Below the pieces are notes generated by a model. It was given only the letters and a program-made list of their open reading frames with translations, made no database searches and was not told the DNA's origin. From Escherichia phage If1, in sequence record NC_001954.1: a DNA stretch of 8,454 nucleotides, one strand, 5' to 3'. Of the stretch, positions 1 through 8,432 are shown one piece after another (position 1 is the first letter of the stretch; each line of letters begins with the position of its first letter). Position numbers and translations under genes: made by a program.

Positions 1-291
1 ATGAGTGAGTTAGGAAATCTGGAAACCACTGTTACCGGAAAAATCAAACGATTTAATAACGGCGGCGGCTATTATTACACTACAGTGGTTTCTCCTGCCG
101 CTGACGCATATAGTTTCCCTCCAGTTATACGCATTAAGTCCAAGAAATCACTTGGCCGTGTGGGGGATGAGATAGCAGATATTCACTGCCGAATTACAGG
201 TTATGAACGTAGCTTTCCATATACAGATAAACAAACAGGTGAGCAATCCCGTGGTTTTAACGTAGACATGCTTCTTGAACTTCTGGAATAA
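1..291 (+). CDS. V: Gene V product, ssDNA-binding protein (by position and size; weak sequence resemblance)
   Basis: 96-aa ORF directly upstream of the VII/IX/VIII block. Its stop TAA (289-291) is followed by ACATG of gene VII, matching the Ff TAACATG junction. SD-like AAGGTG (8444-8449) lies at the window 3' end, 4-5 nt before the ATG at 1 when the sequence is circularised. The frame is closed upstream by TGA at 8434-8436. Confidence 0.6.
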   Translation: MSELGNLETTVTGKIKRFNNGGGYYYTTVVSPAADAYSFPPVIRIKSKKSLGRVGDEIADIHCRITGYERSFPYTDKQTGEQSRGFNVDMLLELLE

Positions 292-293
292 AC

Positions 294-392
294 ATGTCTG
301 CAACAGACTTCGATTCTCTGTATCAATTAATATTTAATGCCGGGCTTGTTATTTGTTTTGGCCTTGGCGTTATTAGTGGTGGTCAAAGATGA
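294..392 (+). CDS. VII: Gene VII minor coat protein (virion tip)
   Basis: 32 aa, MSATDFDSLYQLIFNAGLVICFGLGVISGGQR. Close to M13 pVII as I recall it (MEQVADFDTIYQAMIQISVVLCFALGIIAGGQR). Not in the ORF track because it is short. Its stop overlaps the gene IX start (ATGA at 389-392). Confidence 0.85.
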   Translation: MSATDFDSLYQLIFNAGLVICFGLGVISGGQR

Positions 393-487
393 GTGCACTA
401 TCTTACTTCTTTGCTGCTTATTGTATTGGATGGGTTATATCCCATTCTATTCTGGTGTTTAAAAAACTATCTGAGGTTTCAACATGA
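389..487 (+). CDS. IX: Gene IX minor coat protein (virion tip)
   Basis: 32 aa, MSALSYFFAAYCIGWVISHSILVFKKLSEVST. Hydrophobic, same length and position as M13 pIX. ATGA overlap with gene VIII start (484-487). Confidence 0.8.
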   Translation: MSALSYFFAAYCIGWVISHSILVFKKLSEVST

Positions 488-708
488 AAAAATCAGTCGT
501 TGCAAAAATCATTGCTGGCTCAACTCTGGTTATTGGTTCATCTGCCTTTGCAGCAGATGATGCAACCAGTCAGGCTAAAGCTGCTTTTGATTCTTTAACC
601 GCTCAGGCAACCGAAATGTCCGGGTACGCATGGGCGCTTGTTGTTCTTGTTGTTGGTGCTACGGTGGGAATTAAGCTCTTTAAGAAATTTGTAAGCCGCG
701 CATCCTAA
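484..708 (+). CDS. VIII: Gene VIII major coat protein (procoat with signal peptide)
   Basis: 74 aa with signal peptide, acidic N-terminal segment (AADDATSQAKAAFDSL), hydrophobic core (YAWALVVLVVGATVGI) and basic C-terminus (KLFKKFVSRAS). Near-collinear with M13 pVIII as recalled. Confidence 0.95.
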   Translation: MKKSVVAKIIAGSTLVIGSSAFAADDATSQAKAAFDSLTAQATEMSGYAWALVVLVVGATVGIKLFKKFVSRAS

Positions 709-739
709 TTCAACATTATTTCGCTTCAACCATTCATTT

Positions 740-763
740 GGGTGGCGTCTGCCACCCCTTATT
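740..763 (+). terminator. Rho-independent terminator-like hairpin after gene VIII
   Basis: GGGTGGC(740-746)-GTCT-GCCACCC(751-757), a perfect 7-bp GC-rich stem, followed by CTTATT. Same position as the strong terminator after gene VIII in Ff phages. Confidence 0.55.
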
Positions 764-775
764 AAGGTAGCATAA

Positions 776-2158
776 ATGAAGAAAATAATTATTGCTTTAT
801 TTTTTGCTCCTTTCTTTACCCATGCAACTACAGACGCTGAATGTTTAAGTAAACCCGCATTTGATGGCACATTAAGTAATGTCTGGAAAGAAGGAGACTC
901 ACGTTATGCAAATTTTGAAAACTGCATTTACGAACTTTCGGGTATTGGTATCGGTTATGATAATGATACTTCGTGTAATGGGCACTGGACGCCTGTTCGT
1001 GCTGCTGATGGCTCTGGCAATGGTGGTGATGATAATTCATCTGGCGGGGGTAGTAATGGAGACTCAGGAAACAATTCTACGCCAGATACAGTAACACCCG
1101 GGCAGACTGTGAATTTACCGTCTGACTTATCTACTCTGAGCATTCCTGCTAATGTGGTTAAATCTGACTCAATAGGTTCTCAGTTTTCGCTTTATACAAA
1201 TGCCAGTTGCACAATGTGTTCAGGGTATTATCTGTCTAACAATGCTGATTCAATTGCCATTGCTAACATTACGGAAACGGTAAAGGCTGATTATAACCAG
1301 CCTGATATGTGGTTTGAGCAAACCGACAGTGACGGCAATCATGTTAAAATACTACAGAACAGTTATAAGGCTGTTTCTTATAATGTGGAATCAAAACAAT
1401 CTGACGTGAATAACCCGACATACATTAACTATTCTTATTCCGTTAATGTAAAACAAGTTTCCTATGACACATCAAATGTCTGCATAATGAACTGGGAAAC
1501 TTTTCAGAATAAGTGTGATGCCTCACGTGCTGTTTTGATAACTGATACGGTTACGCCATCTTATTCCAGAAATATAACGATACAGTCGAATATTAATTAT
1601 CAGGGTAGCAACGGGTCAGGCGGGTCAGGCGGGTCAGGCGGGTCAGGCAATGATGGTGGCGGAACCGGGAATAATGGCAACGGAACAGGTGATTTTGATT
1701 ACGTCAAAATGGCAAACGCCAATAAAGATGCACTGACTGAATCATTTGACTTGTCAGCTTTGCAGGCCGATACCGGGGCATCTCTTGATGGTTCTGTACA
1801 GGGAACACTGGATTCTTTAAGCGGGTTTTCCGACAGCATAGGTGGACTTGTTGGCAACGGCTCTGCAATTTCTGGTGAGTTTGCAGGTTCATCAGCTGCT
1901 ATGAATGCAATTGGTGAGGGTGACAAATCGCCTCTGCTGGACTCGCTCTCATTTCTGAAAGACGGATTATTTCCTGCCTTACCTGAATTTAAACAATGTA
2001 CACCATTTGTATTTGCTCCCGGCAAAGAGTACGAATTTATTATTGAGTGCAAATACATTGATATGTTTAAAGGGATTTTTGCTTTCATATTATATTTCTG
2101 GACATTCGTTACTGTTTACGATTCTTTTTCTGGAATATTACGTAAGGGAAGGGGATAA
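776..2158 (+). CDS. III: Gene III minor coat / adsorption protein
   Basis: 460 aa with N-terminal signal peptide. N1-like segment (AECLSKP...[16 protein letters not shown]) resembles the M13 g3p N1 domain. Two Gly/Ser-rich linkers. C-terminal domain ([18 protein letters not shown]...[44 protein letters not shown]) is collinear with the M13 g3p C-terminal anchor. Confidence 0.95.
1613..1648 (+). repeat. Perfect 4x tandem 9-bp repeat (GGGTCAGGC) encoding the (GSG)n linker within gene III
   Basis: Units at 1613-1621, 1622-1630, 1631-1639 and 1640-1648, read directly from the sequence. Confidence 0.9.
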
Positions 2159-2160
2159 CC

Positions 2161-2502
2161 ATGCCAGTTTTTCTGGGGCTTCCTGTTCTGGCAAGATTTA
2201 TTGGATGGCTTGCAGGTGCTCTTATTGCATACGTTGCAAAATTTTTCACATTGGGAATCGCCAGAATAGCACTTGCAATTTCGCTATTTCTTGGCCTTAT
2301 TATCGGTCTGAATGGATTGTTAGTTTCTTATCTTTCAGACCTTACTTCTGTATTGCCACCTGAAATTGCCAGCGCAGTCTCTTATGTTGTTCCGGCTAAT
2401 GCTGCGCCGTGTTTGTATGCGATTTTTTCTCTTAAAGCAGCAGTTTTTATTTTTGACGTTAAAGACAGAATTATAGGATATCTTGACTGGAATAAATCAT
2501 AA
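2161..2502 (+). CDS. VI: Gene VI minor coat protein
   Basis: 113 aa hydrophobic protein (MPVFLGLPVLARF...AISLFLGLIIGLN...YLDWNKS), collinear with M13 pVI. Stop TAA (2500-2502) shares one base with the gene I ATG (2502-2504). Confidence 0.9.
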   Translation: MPVFLGLPVLARFIGWLAGALIAYVAKFFTLGIARIALAISLFLGLIIGLNGLLVSYLSDLTSVLPPEIASAVSYVVPANAAPCLYAIFSLKAAVFIFDVKDRIIGYLDWNKS

Positions 2503-3563
2503 TGGCTGTATATGTCGTAACGGGAAAACTTGGTGCAGGTAAAACACTTGTCGCTGTCGGTAAAATCCAGGACAAAATTGTTTCTGGTTGCAGGGTGGCT
2601 ACGAATCTCGATTTGCGCATTCATAAGCTACCGAGAGTGGGTATATTTGCAAAGTCACCGGATGTAATACGGATACCTGATAAACCATCACTGGATGACT
2701 TACTGGCAATCGGGAGAGGCAATAATTCCTATGATGAAAATAAAAATGGATTACTGGTTCTTGATGAATGTGGGACATGGTTTAACTCACGCTCATGGGC
2801 TGATAAAGAAAGACAGTCCGTAATTAACTGGTTTTTACATGCCAGAAAACTGGGCTGGGATATTATTTTTCTTATTCAGGATTTATCCATCATGGATAAG
2901 CAAGCTCGTGTGGCACTGGCAGAGCATGTCGTTTATTGCCGACGCCTCGATAAAATCACAATTCCATTTATTGGCTCAATTTATAGTGTAATAACGGGAT
3001 CAAAACTTCCGCTACCAAAAGTACATGTCGGGATTGTTAAATATGGTGACTCTCCGCAGTCAATGACCGTAGAACGCTGGACTTATACGGGGCGTGACCT
3101 TTATGCCGCTTATGATACCAAACAGGCATTTTCAGATGCTTATGAGCATTCATCATTTTCATACCTGACACCATATCTTTCACATGGCAGGTATGCCGTA
3201 AAGAGGGACGCTACGTTTTATATGAGACTCACCAGAATCTATTTAAAGAAATATTCCAGAGTATTGTGCCTGTTTTGTGGTTTTGTATCAGCATTCACGT
3301 ACCTCAGTCTGTCCAAGCCGGAAGCGACACCTCAGATAAAACCAGTAACGACGCAGATTATCACATCCCGTTATAAACCATCAGAGTTGAGAATAACAAC
3401 ATCATATCGAATGGGAAATGCAGTTGGTTTTGAGTTTATGGATGCGAAGAAGCAAAAAATTGCATCTGACGATCTAATTAAAGACGGTTTTCGCATGGTC
3501 TATATAACACCTTGTTCGGTAGAGCTTATTAAGGATGGGAAACATGAAAAAGTTACTTGCTAG
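2502..3563 (+). CDS. I: Gene I assembly protein (Zot-like NTPase)
   Basis: 353 aa. Walker A GKLGAGKT near the N-terminus. Extensive collinearity with M13 pI (e.g. NGLLVLDECGTWFN, HARKLGWDIIFL, LTPYLSHGRY). Internal transmembrane segment (RVLCLFCGFVSAFTYLSL). Confidence 0.95.
   Translation: MAVYVVTGKLGAGKTLVAVGKIQDKIVSGCRVATNLDLRIHKLPRVGIFAKSPDVIRIPDKPSLDDLLAIGRGNNSYDENKNGLLVLDECGTWFNSRSWADKERQSVINWFLHARKLGWDIIFLIQDLSIMDKQARVALAEHVVYCRRLDKITIPFIGSIYSVITGSKLPLPKVHVGIVKYGDSPQSMTVERWTYTGRDLYAAYDTKQAFSDAYEHSSFSYLTPYLSHGRYAVKRDATFYMRLTRIYLKKYSRVLCLFCGFVSAFTYLSLSKPEATPQIKPVTTQIITSRYKPSELRITTSYRMGNAVGFEFMDAKKQKIASDDLIKDGFRMVYITPCSVELIKDGKHEKVTC
3222..3563 (+). CDS. XI: Gene XI product (in-frame internal start within gene I)
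   Basis: In-frame ATG at 3222 is codon 241 of gene I, the same relative position as the M13 pXI start (M13 ...KMKLTKIYLKK vs here ...YMRLTRIYLKK). Translation start not verifiable from sequence. Confidence 0.45.
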   Translation: MRLTRIYLKKYSRVLCLFCGFVSAFTYLSLSKPEATPQIKPVTTQIITSRYKPSELRITTSYRMGNAVGFEFMDAKKQKIASDDLIKDGFRMVYITPCSVELIKDGKHEKVTC

Positions 3564-4833
3564 TTTGCTTTGTGTATTGTCATTTCAGAGCTTTGCTATC
3601 CCTGTTGAACTGAATAATGCGCCAGTAAGGGAGTTTGTTTCATGGTATTCAAAAACAACCGGAAAGCCTGTGATTATTTCACCAGACGTAAAAGGGGAAA
3701 TTACGGTTTACTCAGCGGATGTCACCAAAGATGAACTGCCTCAGTTTTTTACTTCGGTTCTCCGGGCGAACGGTTTTGACCTCAGTCCGGGTAATCCTGC
3801 TGTGGTTCAAAAATTTAACCGTAATACGTATGAATATTCCGATTCTTTCTCAGAGCCGGTTCCGGCATCTTCTTATGATGGTGATGTTCCTCCTCCAACT
3901 GGAGACTTTTTCACTAAACCTGAGATACGTGCCAATTTGATTACTCAGACGTATCCGGTCAATAACGTCAGAGCAAAGGATCTCGCACCTGTTATTGATA
4001 TATTCCTGAAGGGGGAAAATATTGCTGGTACTAAAGTTTATCCTTTGATGGGGCGAATATTCTTGCTTGTAACGGCATCAGCATCACAACACAAAGAACT
4101 TGCAGCATTTTTTCCTTCTGTTGATGTGCCAAGAACTCAGGTTCTTGTTGAATCAGTCATTTTTGAAACAACGGCTTCCGATGGTTTTGATTTTTCATTT
4201 GCTGCGGGGGATCCTTCCGGCAGTCCGGTTGCGGGAGGGATCAATACTGACCGTCTCACGTCTGTTTTATCCAGCACTGGCGGTTCCTTTGGTATTTTTA
4301 ACGGGAACATTCTGGGGCTTAGCCTGAAAGCGCTTGAAACATCGAGTAAATCAACGCTTTTATCAATGCCACGCATTCTGACGATGTCAGGTCAACCAGG
4401 AACATTTACAGCAGGGCAAAATGTTCCTTTTGTGACGGGGCGGGTTACGGGAGAAGCTGCAAATGTTAACAATCCATTCCAGACGATCGAACGTCATGAT
4501 GTGGGGATCTCACTGAAGGTTGTTCCGGTCGTGACACCCGGAGGATTGTTAATCATGGATGTTTCGACAAATGCGGATAGTATTTCTGATTCGCAAACGG
4601 CTTCTGACATCATCACAAATACACGCTCAATTTCGACAACCGTTCAGCTAAAATCAGGCCAGACAGTTCTGCTTGGCGGGATGGTAGATAACAGGGAAAG
4701 CGACAGTGATTCATCTGTACCGTGGGTATCAAAAATTCCCTTAATTGGTGCGCTTTTCACGTCCAAAAGCTCAAATGCCAACAAGCGCACGCTGTACATT
4801 CTCATTCGCGCCCGCGTCGTTAACCTGCTTTAA
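3544..4833 (+). CDS. IV: Gene IV secretin (virion export channel)
   Basis: 429 aa from ATG 3544 (MKKLLASLLCVLSFQSFA signal peptide), with AAGGA at 3530-3534 upstream. The ORF track opens at 3535 (432 aa). Strong collinearity with M13 pIV, including the secretin C-domain (VPFVTGRVTGEAANVNNPFQTIERHDVGISLKV...SKIPLIGALF). Confidence 0.95.
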   Translation: MKKLLASLLCVLSFQSFAIPVELNNAPVREFVSWYSKTTGKPVIISPDVKGEITVYSADVTKDELPQFFTSVLRANGFDLSPGNPAVVQKFNRNTYEYSDSFSEPVPASSYDGDVPPPTGDFFTKPEIRANLITQTYPVNNVRAKDLAPVIDIFLKGENIAGTKVYPLMGRIFLLVTASASQHKELAAFFPSVDVPRTQVLVESVIFETTASDGFDFSFAAGDPSGSPVAGGINTDRLTSVLSSTGGSFGIFNGNILGLSLKALETSSKSTLLSMPRILTMSGQPGTFTAGQNVPFVTGRVTGEAANVNNPFQTIERHDVGISLKVVPVVTPGGLLIMDVSTNADSISDSQTASDIITNTRSISTTVQLKSGQTVLLGGMVDNRESDSDSSVPWVSKIPLIGALFTSKSSNANKRTLYILIRARVVNLL

Positions 4834-4929
4834 TCCCGTAGCACCGGCGTTCTCCCTGCGCAGCGGGGGGAACGTTGGTGAGAAGGGCGCTCAGACAGGA
4901 AAATCCCTCCCGATTATCAGGTGGAACAA

Positions 4930-4947
4930 ATCCTGTTTTCACAGGAT
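4930..4947 (+). other. Stem-loop in the gene IV-proximal intergenic region (candidate packaging-signal or minus-strand-origin structure)
   Basis: ATCCTGT(4930-4936)-TTTC-ACAGGAT(4941-4947), a perfect 7-bp stem with a tetraloop and no following T-tract. Confidence 0.35.
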
Positions 4948-5060
4948 ATACAGTAAGACTCACATCATCATAAATACAAAGCGAGACGGGTATCGTAAGA
5001 GTTGCCATGTAGCATTTCCTTTGTGCTGTTGAATTTGTGGGTGCATTTGCACGCGAAGCG

Positions 5061-5085
5061 GTTCGGGGTTCTGTGACACCCGAAC
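5061..5085 (+). other. Stem-loop (7-bp stem, 11-nt loop) in the intergenic region
   Basis: GTTCGGG(5061-5067)...CCCGAAC(5079-5085), read directly from the sequence. Confidence 0.35.
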
Positions 5086-5088
5086 TTT

Positions 5089-5112
5089 ACCGTGGTTTCC
5101 CACGGTATTTTT
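5089..5112 (+). terminator. Plus-strand rho-independent terminator candidate
   Basis: ACCGTGG(5089-5095)-TTTC-CCACGGT(5100-5106) followed by A then T5 (5108-5112). On the minus strand the hairpin is not followed by a T-run, so it is directional (+). It lies immediately before the 3' end of the minus-strand ORF at 5119. Confidence 0.55.
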
Positions 5113-5118
5113 CTAATC

Positions 5119-5310
5119 TTACTCGCTGGACTTGGTTGTGTGAATCAGATCCTTTTCTGTATCTTTTGCATAATTATCAATCAGATGATTAACGATATCA
5201 GTCCAAGTGATCGCACGTCCAGCGGTATGACTGGCATCGATCGCCAGCCGTTCGAGTTTTAGCTTTCGTTCAGCCACGATAGCCATAGTTGTTCGTTTTG
5301 GAGTTGCCAT
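5119..5310 (-). CDS. Small ribbon-helix-helix-like DNA-binding protein (putative regulator; function unknown)
   Basis: 63 aa from ATG (reverse complement of 5308-5310): MATPKRTTMAIVAERKLKLERLAIDASHTAGRAITWTDIVNHLIDNYAKDTEKDLIHTTKSSE. Short N-terminal beta-strand-like segment (RTTMAIV) followed by two predicted helices, as in the CopG/Arc/MetJ pattern. GGAAG lies 5 nt upstream of the ATG. The ORF track starts at an upstream TTG (5322). The only clearly antisense gene relative to the phage operons. Confidence 0.45.
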   Translation of the reverse strand: MATPKRTTMAIVAERKLKLERLAIDASHTAGRAITWTDIVNHLIDNYAKDTEKDLIHTTKSSE

Positions 5311-5329
5311 CTTAACTTCCAAAGGGTAC

Positions 5330-5379
5330 TCCCGCCGACATAAGGCGGGAGGGGAATTTGGACGGGCTTGAAAAGCCCG
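5330..5379 (+). repeat. Left-end subterminal hairpins of the IS (candidate TnpA recognition structures)
   Basis: Hairpin 1: TCCCGCC(5330-5336)-GACATAA-GGCGGGA(5344-5350). Hairpin 2: CGGGCTT(5363-5369)-GAA-AAGCCCG(5373-5379). They lie just downstream of the tnpA stop (5388-5390 on the minus strand) and are separated by a G-rich motif GGGAGGGGAA. Confidence 0.5.
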
Positions 5380-5387
5380 AAGGGTGA

Positions 5388-5768
5388 TCAGCCACGCTGA
5401 TGTTGAATGTATTGCCTAACAACTTCCAGCGGCGCACCTCCGCAGGAGCCAGCAAAGTATGACCTAGACCAGAGCACGGCTTTTCCGTATGCCCCCCGCA
5501 AATCAAGAAATTCGTTTCGCAGACGGCGGGATGTCACTGCTTTCAGTGAGTTAACCAGTACCGAAAGCTGCACTGTTGGTGGGTATTCGATCAGCATGTG
5601 GACATCATCGTACGTCTCCGTTACTTTCTTTAAGTTCCTCGCCCCAAAATCACGGCAGCACTTCTGCCTGCATACTGATGAAATGGCTGCACAGTGTAAC
5701 TCTCCCAGTATCTTTCGACGGTATTTTGTTACAAAGACGAAGATGAACATGCAAAAGGAAGGCAGCAT
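5388..5768 (-). CDS. tnpA: IS200/IS605-family Y1 (HuH) transposase TnpA
   Basis: 126 aa from ATG (reverse complement of 5766-5768); the track ORF opens at TTG 5831. Core motifs present: ...FVTKYRRK..., ...DDVHMLIEYPP... (HuH-region) and ...LWSRSYFAGSCGGAPLEVVRQYIQHQ (catalytic Tyr region). The first His of the HuH motif reads as Asp (D-V-H). Confidence 0.85.
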   Translation of the reverse strand: MLPSFCMFIFVFVTKYRRKILGELHCAAISSVCRQKCCRDFGARNLKKVTETYDDVHMLIEYPPTVQLSVLVNSLKAVTSRRLRNEFLDLRGAYGKAVLWSRSYFAGSCGGAPLEVVRQYIQHQRG

Positions 5769-5852
5769 GTCTTGAACGATTGATTTTATATTTTTGCATT
5801 GAGGTTGGCCGTAAAAGCAGTAATATTGCAAGAAAATCTAGCTACACACTGA

Positions 5853-6143
5853 ATGATGATGCTAATCCTGAAAGCCTACAAATTCAGACTGGAACCAACG
5901 CCTGAACAGTCGCAGCGTTTGCGGCAGTTATGCGGTTGCGCCCGTTTTGTCTGGAATTTAGGTCTTGCGGAGACAAAGCGCATACTTGACTCAGGCGAAA
6001 AGTTACCTTCGGCTTTCGAGTTGAACCGGAGTGATTACAGTGTGGAAAAAAATGCCGGAATACATCTTCTTACAGGATGCCTATACCGACAATCTGCAAC
6101 AAAAGCTGAAAGACCTGCATACCGCATGGAAACGTTGTTTTGA
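5853..6143 (+). CDS. tnpB: tnpB N-terminal fragment (frame 0), out of frame with the main tnpB body
   Basis: Starts ATGATGATG. MMMLILKAYKFRLEPTPEQSQRLRQLCGCARFVWNLGLAE matches the canonical TnpB/OrfB N-terminal signature (KAYKFRLxPTxEQ...GCARFVWN). Only about the first 60 aa look genuine; the rest of the frame runs to a stop at 6141-6143. Confidence 0.7.
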   Translation: MMMLILKAYKFRLEPTPEQSQRLRQLCGCARFVWNLGLAETKRILDSGEKLPSAFELNRSDYSVEKNAGIHLLTGCLYRQSATKAERPAYRMETLF

Positions 6144-7086
6144 TAAAAAGCTCGCAGCTAAGGCTCCGGTATGGAAACGAAAAAATGAGGGCAGAGACTC
6201 AATCCGTTTTGTGAACTTTGAGAAATATTGCTGCCTTGAAAATCGCAGAGTGAAGCTACCGTCAGGTCTTGGGTGGGTAAAATTCCGGCAATCTCAACGT
6301 GTGAACGGTAAAATCAAAAATGCGACAATCAGTCAGTTAGCGGGACAGTGGTATATCTCGTTTCAGGTTGAAATTGAAACGGCAGAACCAAATCACACAA
6401 GCACAACGATAGTCGGTCTGGATGCTGGCGTGGCTAAACTCGCCACGCTGTCAGATGGCACAGTCTTTGAACCTGTAAACAGTTTTCAGAAAAACCAGAA
6501 GAAGCTGGCGAGACTTCAGCGACAGTTAAGCCGCAAGGTCAAATTCAGCAACAACTGGCAGAAGCAGAAACGCAAAATACAGTGTCTGCATTCCCGTATC
6601 GCAAATATCCGCAGAGACTACCTTCATAAAGTCACAACGACCGTCAGCAAAAACCACGCAATGATAGTCATTGAGGATTTGAAGGTCAGCAACATGTCAA
6701 AGTCAGCAGCGGGTACGGTCAGCCAGCCGGGGCGCAATGTCCGGGCAAAATCAGGTTTAAACCGTTCGATACTGGATCAGGGCTGGTATGAAATGCGCCG
6801 CCAGCTTGAGTACAAACAGCTCTGGCGTGGAGGTCAGGTGCTTGCTGTTCCGCCAGCGTACACAAGCCAGCGTTGCGCGTGCTGTGGTCATACAGCGAAA
6901 GAAAACCGCCTGTCACAAAGTCAATTCAGATGCCAGGTATGTGGATATACAGCGAACGCCGATGTAAATGGCGCTCGTAACATTTTAGCGGCGGGGCACG
7001 CCGTACTTGCCTGTGGAGGGACGATGCAGTCAGACCGCCCGTTGAAGCAGGAACCAGACGCTGAGCAATCAGCCGTCACCCACTAA
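6031..7086 (+). CDS. tnpB: tnpB main body: RuvC-like, zinc-finger RNA-guided endonuclease (IS605 OrfB / OMEGA TnpB)
   Basis: 351 aa in frame +1 relative to the N-terminal fragment. RuvC-I (IVGLDAGV), RuvC-II (MIVIEDLKV), zinc finger (CACCGH...CQVCGY) and RuvC-III ([10 protein letters not shown]) all present. Frame opens just after TGA at 6022-6024, with first start-like codon GTG at 6031. Combined with the N-terminal fragment the protein would be about 410 aa. Confidence 0.85.
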
Positions 7087-7091
7087 TGGGA

Positions 7092-7132
7092 ATCCCCCTC
7101 CTGAGTCACGAAGTGCGAAGGTGGGGGAGGAT
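7092..7132 (+). repeat. Right-end imperfect palindrome / G-rich motif of the IS (candidate RE structure and omega-RNA scaffold 3' region)
   Basis: ATCCCCCTCC (7092-7101) ... GGTGGGGGAGGAT (7120-7132), 6-13 nt after the tnpB stop. It can form an imperfect stem with bulges. It resembles the left-end motif GGCGGGAGGGGAA at 5344-5356. Confidence 0.4.
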
Positions 7133-7140
7133 GTCAATCC

Positions 7141-7315
7141 ACACCTCAGTAGTTTTCTGCTGGCATAAAGCTAAACACTTATGCTCTCCAGTCGTATTCT
7201 GCCGTCATTATAGTTAAACACTTATGCGCTCATATCATTATGCTTGTATACATGCGTAATGCGTGATAGATTTTTGTCATTTCGTAACTGCATACATGTA
7301 TAGGGTGAGTGTTCA
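7141..7315 (+). promoter_or_regulatory. Gene II-proximal intergenic region: candidate plus-strand origin, gene II promoter and operator
   Basis: AT-rich. 13-bp direct repeat TAAACACTTATGC at 7172-7184 and 7215-7227. Palindromes TGTATACA (7245-7252) and ATACATGTAT (7292-7301). Possible -35 TTGTCA (7274-7279). SD-like GGGTGAG before the ATG at 7316. Same position as the plus-strand origin and gene II promoter in Ff phages. Confidence 0.45.
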
Positions 7316-7537
7316 ATGTTTTTTGACTGGCTGACTATTGAACAGGATTTTGGCTTTCAGCTACCGATTTTGAGTGATGTTGCCTATCAGCGCATCCACC
7401 TCGAAAGCGGGGAAGCGTCAGCTCTGAGTCAGCCAACTTTTCAGCACAAAGGATCTTTTTGTGATGGTTGTTTCGATCTCTATCCGAGGCTCATTGCTGA
7501 AAGTCTCTGGAAATCCTTCCCGGTGGGGGCGTCTTGA
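7316..7537 (+). CDS. II: Gene II replication initiator, N-terminal segment (frame 2), ahead of an apparent frameshift
   Basis: MFFDWLTIEQDFGFQLPILSDVAYQRIHLESGEASALSQPTFQHKGSF... Start and N-terminal pattern resemble M13 pII (MIDMLVLRLPF...). The genuine part probably ends at F48 (7457-7459); the track ORF continues out of frame to 7537. Confidence 0.7.
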   Translation: MFFDWLTIEQDFGFQLPILSDVAYQRIHLESGEASALSQPTFQHKGSFCDGCFDLYPRLIAESLWKSFPVGAS

Positions 7538-8432
7538 TAATTTATTTGGCCTTCCAACTTTGGATTCCTGTGTATCGGTTTTCAATACGATCCTTGCTGA
7601 AATAGGTTTACCTCAGTTTACGAAATGTAAGAGGCTTATGCCCGGCCAGGCAAAAGAGAATGAGAAAGCACCTCTTGTTGCTGACGGTGCAATTATTAAA
7701 GAAGTACATATCACCTCGAACAGGGCGGCAGGTAAGGGGAATGAAGATGACTATATTTCAGGTTTATCTACGCAACCCTACAGGAACAGCGTTCCACGGC
7801 TACACTCCAATGGAAAATCCGTTGACTGGCTGTCTAAAAAAGGCAATGTAAACCTCATATATCCAACGGTTTACAATAAAGCTCATGAAATGGAACTCCA
7901 TTCTTTGACAAAGATAAAGAATCGTTTTTCCGAACAATCTCGGGAATACAATTACCTACTCGATATTATATCTTTCTGCAAAGAGAATGGGGTCGTAAGG
8001 TTTGAGCAAAAGCTGAAATCCAGATTTTTGCAAAAGAATGCGCTCAATTACTGGGGGCTTTCTGATTATTCCATTTTAAATAAGTTACATTCTGATTTTC
8101 TTGAACTTGATAAAAAGTTATCGGTGAATGCTATGGACTTTGAAACTATCAGTGATCATCTTGTAAGTAGTGGGGTTGTTGAAACCACCCGTGCAGCAAA
8201 TACTACCGCAATGTATGCAATACAGTGGTTTCACGGTCATGTATTTGACTTCAACAAAAAACAGGTTCAGACACATCGGGCGCGGTTACGAAAAATTGGT
8301 ATCGACATTGCGCAGAAATGCAATGTTTCTAAATTCTCTCCTGTGATTGTGAAACAAACACGGGAAATTAAGGTGCAGGAGTGCGTTGCACCATCATGGT
8401 ATGTACGTCCGTCACATTTACGCGTTGCATAG
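7461..8432 (+). CDS. II: Gene II replication initiator (rolling-circle nickase), main body (frame 0)
   Basis: 323 aa. SISIRGSLLKVSGNPSRWG aligns with M13 pII CVEIKASPAKVLQGHNVFG, and RFEQKLKSRFLQKNAL with M13 RFEARIKTRYLKSF. Stop TAG at 8430-8432. Frame opens after TGA at 7425-7427. Confidence 0.9.
   Translation: MMVVSISIRGSLLKVSGNPSRWGRLDNLFGLPTLDSCVSVFNTILAEIGLPQFTKCKRLMPGQAKENEKAPLVADGAIIKEVHITSNRAAGKGNEDDYISGLSTQPYRNSVPRLHSNGKSVDWLSKKGNVNLIYPTVYNKAHEMELHSLTKIKNRFSEQSREYNYLLDIISFCKENGVVRFEQKLKSRFLQKNALNYWGLSDYSILNKLHSDFLELDKKLSVNAMDFETISDHLVSSGVVETTRAANTTAMYAIQWFHGHVFDFNKKQVQTHRARLRKIGIDIAQKCNVSKFSPVIVKQTREIKVQECVAPSWYVRPSHLRVA
8133..8432 (+). CDS. X: Gene X product (in-frame internal start within gene II)
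   Basis: In-frame ATG at 8133 (MDFETISDHL...) preceded by GGTGA at 8123-8127. 99 aa. Same relative position and size as M13 pX (111 aa). Confidence 0.5.
   Translation: MDFETISDHLVSSGVVETTRAANTTAMYAIQWFHGHVFDFNKKQVQTHRARLRKIGIDIAQKCNVSKFSPVIVKQTREIKVQECVAPSWYVRPSHLRVA

Follow-up and report, generated by a model that had tools for sequence, protein, structure and literature searches.

IS605/IS606 and IS608 of Helicobacter pylori are the type elements for single-strand 'peel and paste' transposition. They possess a Y1 HUH transposase, TnpA, and subterminal hairpins, and are devoid of inverted repeats and target duplication. IS608 uses TTAC as its target and has TCAA at its right end, while the two genes of IS605 are divergent. 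TnpB proteins are described as a single polypeptide of ~400 aa in which an N-terminal HTH/WED-REC part is combined with a RuvC domain and a zinc-finger TNB domain (NCBIfam NF040570), and the structures of one of them, the RNA-guided DNA endonuclease ISDra2 TnpB of Deinococcus radiodurans, are available (PDB 8H1J, 8EXA, 8BF8). Filamentous Ff phages (M13/f1/fd) have the gene order V, VII, IX, VIII, III, VI, I, IV, intergenic region, II, and Ff cloning vectors tolerate inserts roughly in the region between gIV and gII.

We analysed the 8,454 nucleotides of Escherichia phage If1 in record NC_001954.1 (hereafter, the window), where an IS200/IS605-family element lies between gIV and gII and its tnpB is distributed over two reading frames. 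The initial annotation had ascribed this split to a single-nucleotide indel, and had left it open whether the indel reflects IS decay or domestication, a sequencing error or low-level ribosomal frameshifting. From the comparisons described below, we infer, rather than see directly, that the frameshift is most probably a sequencing artefact. Of the options entertained initially, sequencing error is thus the one favoured by the evidence. Coordinates of the relevant features are listed in Table 1.

Table 1. Features of the window that bear on the split of tnpB
Feature	Coordinates	Strand	Evidence or remark
gIV (secretin), compensating pair: 1-nt deletion at ~4043 and 1-nt insertion at 4067	4043..4067	+	Relatives L005-L009
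CCAT, conserved left-flank target	5307..5310	+	Three independent sites: gCCAT, gCCAT, tCCAT
IS200/IS605-family element in the phage intergenic region, with divergent tnpA and tnpB	5311..7137	+	1,827 nt; intact copies 1,818 nt
Left-end subterminal imperfect hairpin	5318..5362	+	19-nt arms, 74% complementary
tnpA (Y1/HUH transposase), broken by seven insertions and two substitutions	5388..5799	-	Alignment with L001; Pfam
Stretch to which the 11 differences from L001 are confined (9 insertions, 2 substitutions, 0 deletions)	5606..6031		426 nt
Extra G in the tnpA-tnpB intergenic spacer	5841..5841	+	Alignment with L001
tnpB codons 1-59 (HTH / N-terminal WED-REC part), frame 0	5853..6030	+	Pfam HTH_OrfB_IS605; NCBIfam guided_TnpB
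Extra G, cause of the frameshift	6031..6031	+	Intact copies AACCGGATGATT, window AACCGGAGTGATT
Remaining tnpB (RuvC and zinc-finger TNB domains), frame +1	6032..7086	+	OrfB_IS605, Cas12f1-like_TNB
A7 run, proposed slippage site, not the lesion	6046..6052	+	Same A7, in frame, in intact L001
Right-end subterminal hairpin	7093..7128	+	10-nt arms, 90% complementary
Extra G splitting the essential replication gene gII	7466..7466	+	Comparison with L007

The insertion sequence, its target and its plausible source

The backbone of the window has the Ff gene order, which is also shared by the If1-like IMG/VR contigs L005-L007. By Pfam, g3p was assigned to Phage_Coat_A, g1p to Zot, g4p to the secretins and g2p to G2P_X_C and Phage_CRI; g6p matches DUF5455 and was named from its place after gIII. 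Ff g3p is ~42% identical to that of the window; the gIV proteins of the contigs have 97% (L005 and L006) and 95% (L007) identity to the gIV protein of the window. Unlike the window, these contigs have no IS, an uninterrupted gII and a conserved gIV segment. An exact protein look-up of g3p and g4p gave no match, and neither did a tblastn search of M13 gII against the gII region of the window.

The IS-free contig L007 provides the empty site. It reads GGAGTTGCCAT joined directly to TTCACACCTCAG (L007 187-192), as against GGAGTTGCCAT, the IS and then TCCACACCTCAG in the window; equivalently, GCCAT is followed by TTCACACC in L007, and by the IS and then TCCACACC in the window. Because of this empty site, the IS proper could be delimited to 5311-7137. 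The insertion is directly 3' of CCAT and has not duplicated its target, and the right end finishes with GATGTCAA at 7137, as it does in all the copies. The element therefore combines subterminal hairpins, a fixed target motif and the absence of both terminal inverted repeats and target duplication, as in the IS200/IS605 family. We consider the CCAT-targeted insertion and the end hairpins to be hallmarks of 'peel and paste' elements. It resembles IS608 in its insertion 3' of a fixed tetranucleotide and in its TCAA right end, and IS605 in its divergent genes; it differs from IS608 in its target, CCAT rather than TTAC, and its transposition is a prediction from these features.

In a megablast search of complete E. 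coli genomes, 5306-7137 was found to be ~99.5% identical to sequences on many conjugative plasmids, whose copies are annotated with both genes intact, tnpA encoding 134 aa and the 'RNA-guided endonuclease InsQ/TnpB' gene 408 aa. We used the copy on NZ_CP029975.1 (22,799-24,616; TnpA WP_001175009.1, TnpB WP_024186316.1) as the reference, L001; this plasmid was typed as IncI-gamma/K1, MPF_I. The IS of IncI-complex plasmids from E. coli, Salmonella and E. fergusonii is identical in DNA to that of the window at 1,821 of the 1,823 alignable positions. The two also agree in their ends, with CCAT on the left flank and GTCAA at the right end, in their hairpins and in the divergent arrangement of tnpA and tnpB. 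The differences are that the L001-type copies reside in plasmids, whereas the window copy is in a filamentous phage genome and has nine extra bases and two substitutions in 5606-6031, with both genes broken. On many IncI-complex conjugative plasmids, the IS occupies a conserved site near excA/hha. IncI-type plasmids make the pilus that I-specific phages need, and an IncI-complex plasmid was plausibly the donor of the phage IS. When the whole window was compared by megablast with the phage and plasmid collections, only the IS was matched.

The strand that reads CCAT, left end and right end in this order is the + strand of the window, which bears all the phage genes; by analogy with the Ff phages, the top strand of the IS would be the strand that is made and packaged as ssDNA. 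Location of the IS top strand on the phage coding strand fits the ssDNA targeting of IS200/IS605 elements, and we found no paper mentioning the insertion. The IS lies 178 nt upstream of gII (start 7316), and this insert-tolerant location may explain how the phage survives with a 1.8-kb insertion. In the same intergenic region, ~60 nt at 5052-5114 recur with 92-98% identity at sites without annotation on many plasmids of Klebsiella, Pantoea and E. coli, in the inovirus contigs L006, L008 and L009, and in the Alteromonas phage phiAFP1. This segment is possibly conserved as an origin or as an element resembling a packaging signal.

A single extra G splits tnpB in this record

As written, the window encodes TnpB as 96 aa and 351 aa in two frames rather than as one polypeptide. 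The first ORF (5853-6143) starts with MMMLILKAYKFRLEPTPEQ, continues to GCARFVWN and matches Pfam HTH_OrfB_IS605 (E 1.9e-18); the second (6031-7086) matches OrfB_IS605 (E 4.8e-33) and Cas12f1-like_TNB (E 2e-24). The two pieces cover positions 1-44 and 55-388, respectively, of the NCBIfam guided_TnpB profile. With (6031-5853) mod 3 being 1, the frame of the second ORF is shifted by +1 from that of the first. This +1 frame is shut by the TGA at 6022-6024, and frame 0 runs out of register past 6030 until it is stopped by the TGA at 6141-6143. The split near codon 60, with its ORFs, frames and stops, was hence exactly as the initial annotation had placed it.

Alignment with intact homologues, L001 in particular, pinned the indel, which had been expected between 6025 and 6060. 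It is a one-base insertion of G at 6031, in codon 60, that converts GGATGA into GGAGTGA; L001 reads AACCGGATGATTACAG around this position and the window AACCGGAGTGATTACAG. The extra base separates A6030 from T6032, where the sequence is not repetitive, and changes an in-frame Met codon, ATG, into A-GTG. Downstream of it, the DNA of tnpB is 100% identical to that of L001. Upon deletion of G6031 in silico, a continuous ORF of 410 aa is obtained, which equals MM plus the 408-aa TnpB of IncI plasmids, WP_024186316.1. Thus, the anticipated correction to an uninterrupted ORF of ~410 aa takes the removal of one base, and the corrected gene encodes the single polypeptide of the family; WP_024186316.1 itself reaches 363 bits, the cut-off being 100.

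The corrected protein has homology with ISDra2 TnpB over its full length (E ~1e-42; chain residues 4-377 with residues 4-384 here). The domain order is shared, including the N-terminal segment that is cut off here by the frameshift. The RuvC D-E-D residues, in GLDAGV, IVIEDL and NADVNGARN, align with the motifs of a solved TnpB-type nuclease, and the CxxC...CxxC zinc finger is present as CACCGH...CQVCGY. The corrected protein and ISDra2 TnpB are distant in sequence, and the motif flanking the target is CCAT here; the nuclease function of the phage protein is a prediction. Since residue 3-7 of the 408-aa protein is where the alignment with both the structures and the family profile begins, the N-terminal 57-59 residues are part of TnpB. 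An Rfam scan gave one match, to RAGATH-18 at 7010-7053, which is below threshold (28.1 bits; gathering score, 44.9; E 0.053); it lies inside the 3' end of tnpB, where the omega/right-end RNA scaffold is expected.

The extra G is unique to this record. With a 71-nt query centred on 6031, the best identity was 98.6% (one gap) in 49 of 49 E. coli records and in 81 of 81 PLSDB plasmids that have the region, and none of either set has the extra base. We observed no exact match of 25-28-mers having the extra G in genome contigs (100,044 species) or in metagenome contigs. The sole match among the IMG/VR viral contigs was UViG_638275991, which is identical to the window. The left junction between phage and IS also had no independent copy in viral, metagenome or genome contigs. 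A literature search on If1 with IS605, transposase or TnpB yielded no paper describing the IS or the errors of the record.

Probable errors of the same kind in the element and in the phage genes

Relative to L001, the nine single-base insertions are at 5611, 5638, 5639, 5659, 5667, 5685 and 5739 in tnpA, at 5841 in the spacer and at 6031 in tnpB. The two substitutions, at 5606 and 5640, adjoin insertions and are also in tnpA, that at 5606 changing the first His of the HUH motif into Asp (DHVHML to DDVHML). All 11 differences lie in the 426 nt of 5606-6031; on either side of this stretch, 5306-5605 and 6032-7137 are identical to L001, an exact match over the remaining 1,406 nt. If differences were placed uniformly, 11 of them would fall within such a span with P ~4e-6. 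The spectrum is abnormal as well. L001 differs from a second natural copy, L002, by 36 substitutions spread over the element and from a third, L037, by 2, with no indel in either comparison; the ratio of substitutions to indels is 2:9 in the window against 38:0 among natural copies (Fisher exact, p = 2.7e-8). Hence, neither the natural spectrum nor the repetition of the lesion in an independent sequence, as would mark a genuine pseudogene, was found.

Inserted bases are C or T in 5611-5667 and G in 5685-6031 as well as at 7466 in gII, a pattern that would fit a single base being called spuriously in reads that came from opposite strands. They are mostly outside homopolymers; such insertions are not the commonest modern sequencing error, but they fit manual or early automated gel reading. 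The intact tnpA encodes 134 aa (WP_001175009.1; NCBIfam transpos_IS200, E 1.2e-40) with the motif DHVHML. Despite the seven insertions, tnpA of the window still matches Pfam Y1_Tnp (E 1.2e-27), and an ORF of 147 aa at 5388-5831 remains open, because the insertions return the frame to register in three segments.

Defects of the same type were observed in the phage backbone. The gene gII, which is indispensable for filamentous phages, is split into 7316-7537 and 7461-8432; L007 reads GTGATGTTG where the window has GTGATGGTTG. Without G7466, there is an ORF of 371 aa, which departs from the uninterrupted gII of L007 at 3 amino acids. In gIV, compared with L005, L006 and L007, a T is absent at ~4043 and an extra T is present at 4067, 24 nt apart. 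This pair garbles eight conserved residues, PLMGRIFLL replacing PFDGANILA. The latter persists also in relatives with no more than 80% identity in the gIV protein, and L005-L009 all agree against the window. One further extra base specific to the window is at 4905 in the intergenic region. No window-specific single-base indel was seen in 1-4000, and the indel trouble is confined to roughly 4043-7466. In g3p, codon 67 (974-976) is TGT (Cys) in the window. L006 and L007 have TGG (Trp) here, and Trp is likewise the residue in PDB 2x9a, which we take to be the N1 domain of the phage IF1 g3p. Residues 17-81 are identical to 2x9a at 64 of 65 positions, and the TGT codon is probably another base-call error.

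Real decay of the element in the phage stock would imply that G6031 leaves a 96-aa HTH fragment and, at best, an inactive product of 351 aa lacking part of WED/REC. The IS is dispensable cargo, and tnpA and tnpB are not needed by the phage; therefore, there is no selection for their intactness, and the passenger IS of a laboratory stock might in principle be damaged. That tnpA is broken too is what one expects of a dead element, and a natural inactive copy does exist, namely L037 (NZ_CP126616.1, locus 1358-2590), where the PGAP annotation has tnpB in two pieces, an HTH protein and a partial TnpB. L037, however, differs from L001 by its two substitutions only, and its inactivation is probably due to a nonsense substitution and not to an indel. 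Decay would also have to produce nine insertions, two substitutions and no deletion in 426 nt while leaving the other 1,406 nt untouched, although natural divergence of the element proceeded by 38 substitutions without indels, and the lesion is unique to the window record. Moreover, frame errors are present in the essential gII and gIV of the same record, and a viable phage cannot carry them. Therefore, genuine decay or domestication, the first of the options raised initially, appears unlikely; the mutation spectrum is wrong for it and essential phage genes have like lesions.

Two other readings take the two-frame arrangement at face value, and we consider either of them very improbable. The TnpB frames could be joined by programmed recoding in the 6025-6140 overlap, either by +1 ribosomal frameshifting or by transcriptional slippage on the A7 run. 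This run does lie inside the overlap, and the loss of one A from the mRNA would restore the downstream frame. Yet the intact copies that we inspected, L001 and L002, have one continuous frame with the same, unchanged A7 in it, which disposes of the run as the slippage site. A-rich heptamers promote -1 slippage, but the shift needed is +1 (or -2) and not -1, and the rescued product would hold RSDYSVE in place of the conserved RMITVW. Nor is a two-frame arrangement conserved, since it is found in none of the ~130 other copies, and low-level ribosomal frameshifting loses its ground with it. Alternatively, TnpB could truly start at 6031 as a short form of 351 aa, the upstream HTH ORF being a separate gene. 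Some records of E. fergusonii and E. coli do annotate a 351-aa protein beginning with MITVWKK (for example, BEB09203.1, P0001). These annotations, however, start at an internal ATG that is in frame with the upstream 57 codons of an uninterrupted gene. The alignment of the guided_TnpB profile and of the ISDra2 TnpB structures from residue 3-7 of the 408 aa also speaks against a start at 6031, as does the fact that the pieces in the window cover two parts of one family model. From an exact protein look-up, the 351-aa annotation is a start-site miscall that by chance equals the second ORF of the window. On the basis of the intact copies, the structures, the profile and the frame arithmetic, -1 frameshifting, A7 slippage and a genuine start at 6031 were all rejected.

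The artefact reading is preferred because a viable phage cannot have a frameshifted gII, and because nine independent insertions in 426 nt are implausible without substitutions elsewhere in the copy. According to it, a spurious G at 6031 in an old genome record would have split tnpB, as one of nine spurious insertions in 5606-6031, in addition to at least four single-base indels elsewhere in the record. They would be base-calling errors that arose in an old sequencing project, from a poorly covered, probably single-read, low-quality stretch. The tnpB of the real phage would most probably be an uninterrupted gene for an RNA-guided nuclease of 408-410 aa, identical to that of the IncI plasmid, and tnpA an intact gene for a Y1 transposase of 134 aa.

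Consequences for the record and for the phage

The tnpB frameshift is not to be taken as a case of IS domestication, decay or recoding. This old filamentous-phage record contains at least a dozen single-base errors, including those in the essential gII and gIV and also in g3p. Annotation, phage display design and TnpB surveys that use the record would inherit broken genes.

If the real phage has an intact and active IS, acquired from an IncI plasmid and inserted 3' of CCAT on the packaged ssDNA strand, TnpB might cut replicative forms that are revertant or IS-free and so enforce retention of the IS. We put this forward as a tentative and rather doubtful proposal. The guide of TnpB would then be the sequence to the right of the IS (7138 onward), matching the IS-free phage genome beside CCAT. 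The candidate guide, for an intact TnpB, is 7138-7153, TCCACACCTCAGTAGT; the second position is different in L007 (TTCACACC...). In this way, TnpB might selfishly maintain the IS in the phage. The useful biology is rather the location of a TnpA/TnpB element, the same as in IncI plasmids, on the strand that is packaged by an ssDNA phage specific for I pili; this would illustrate, in a natural setting, how the transposon family targets single strands.
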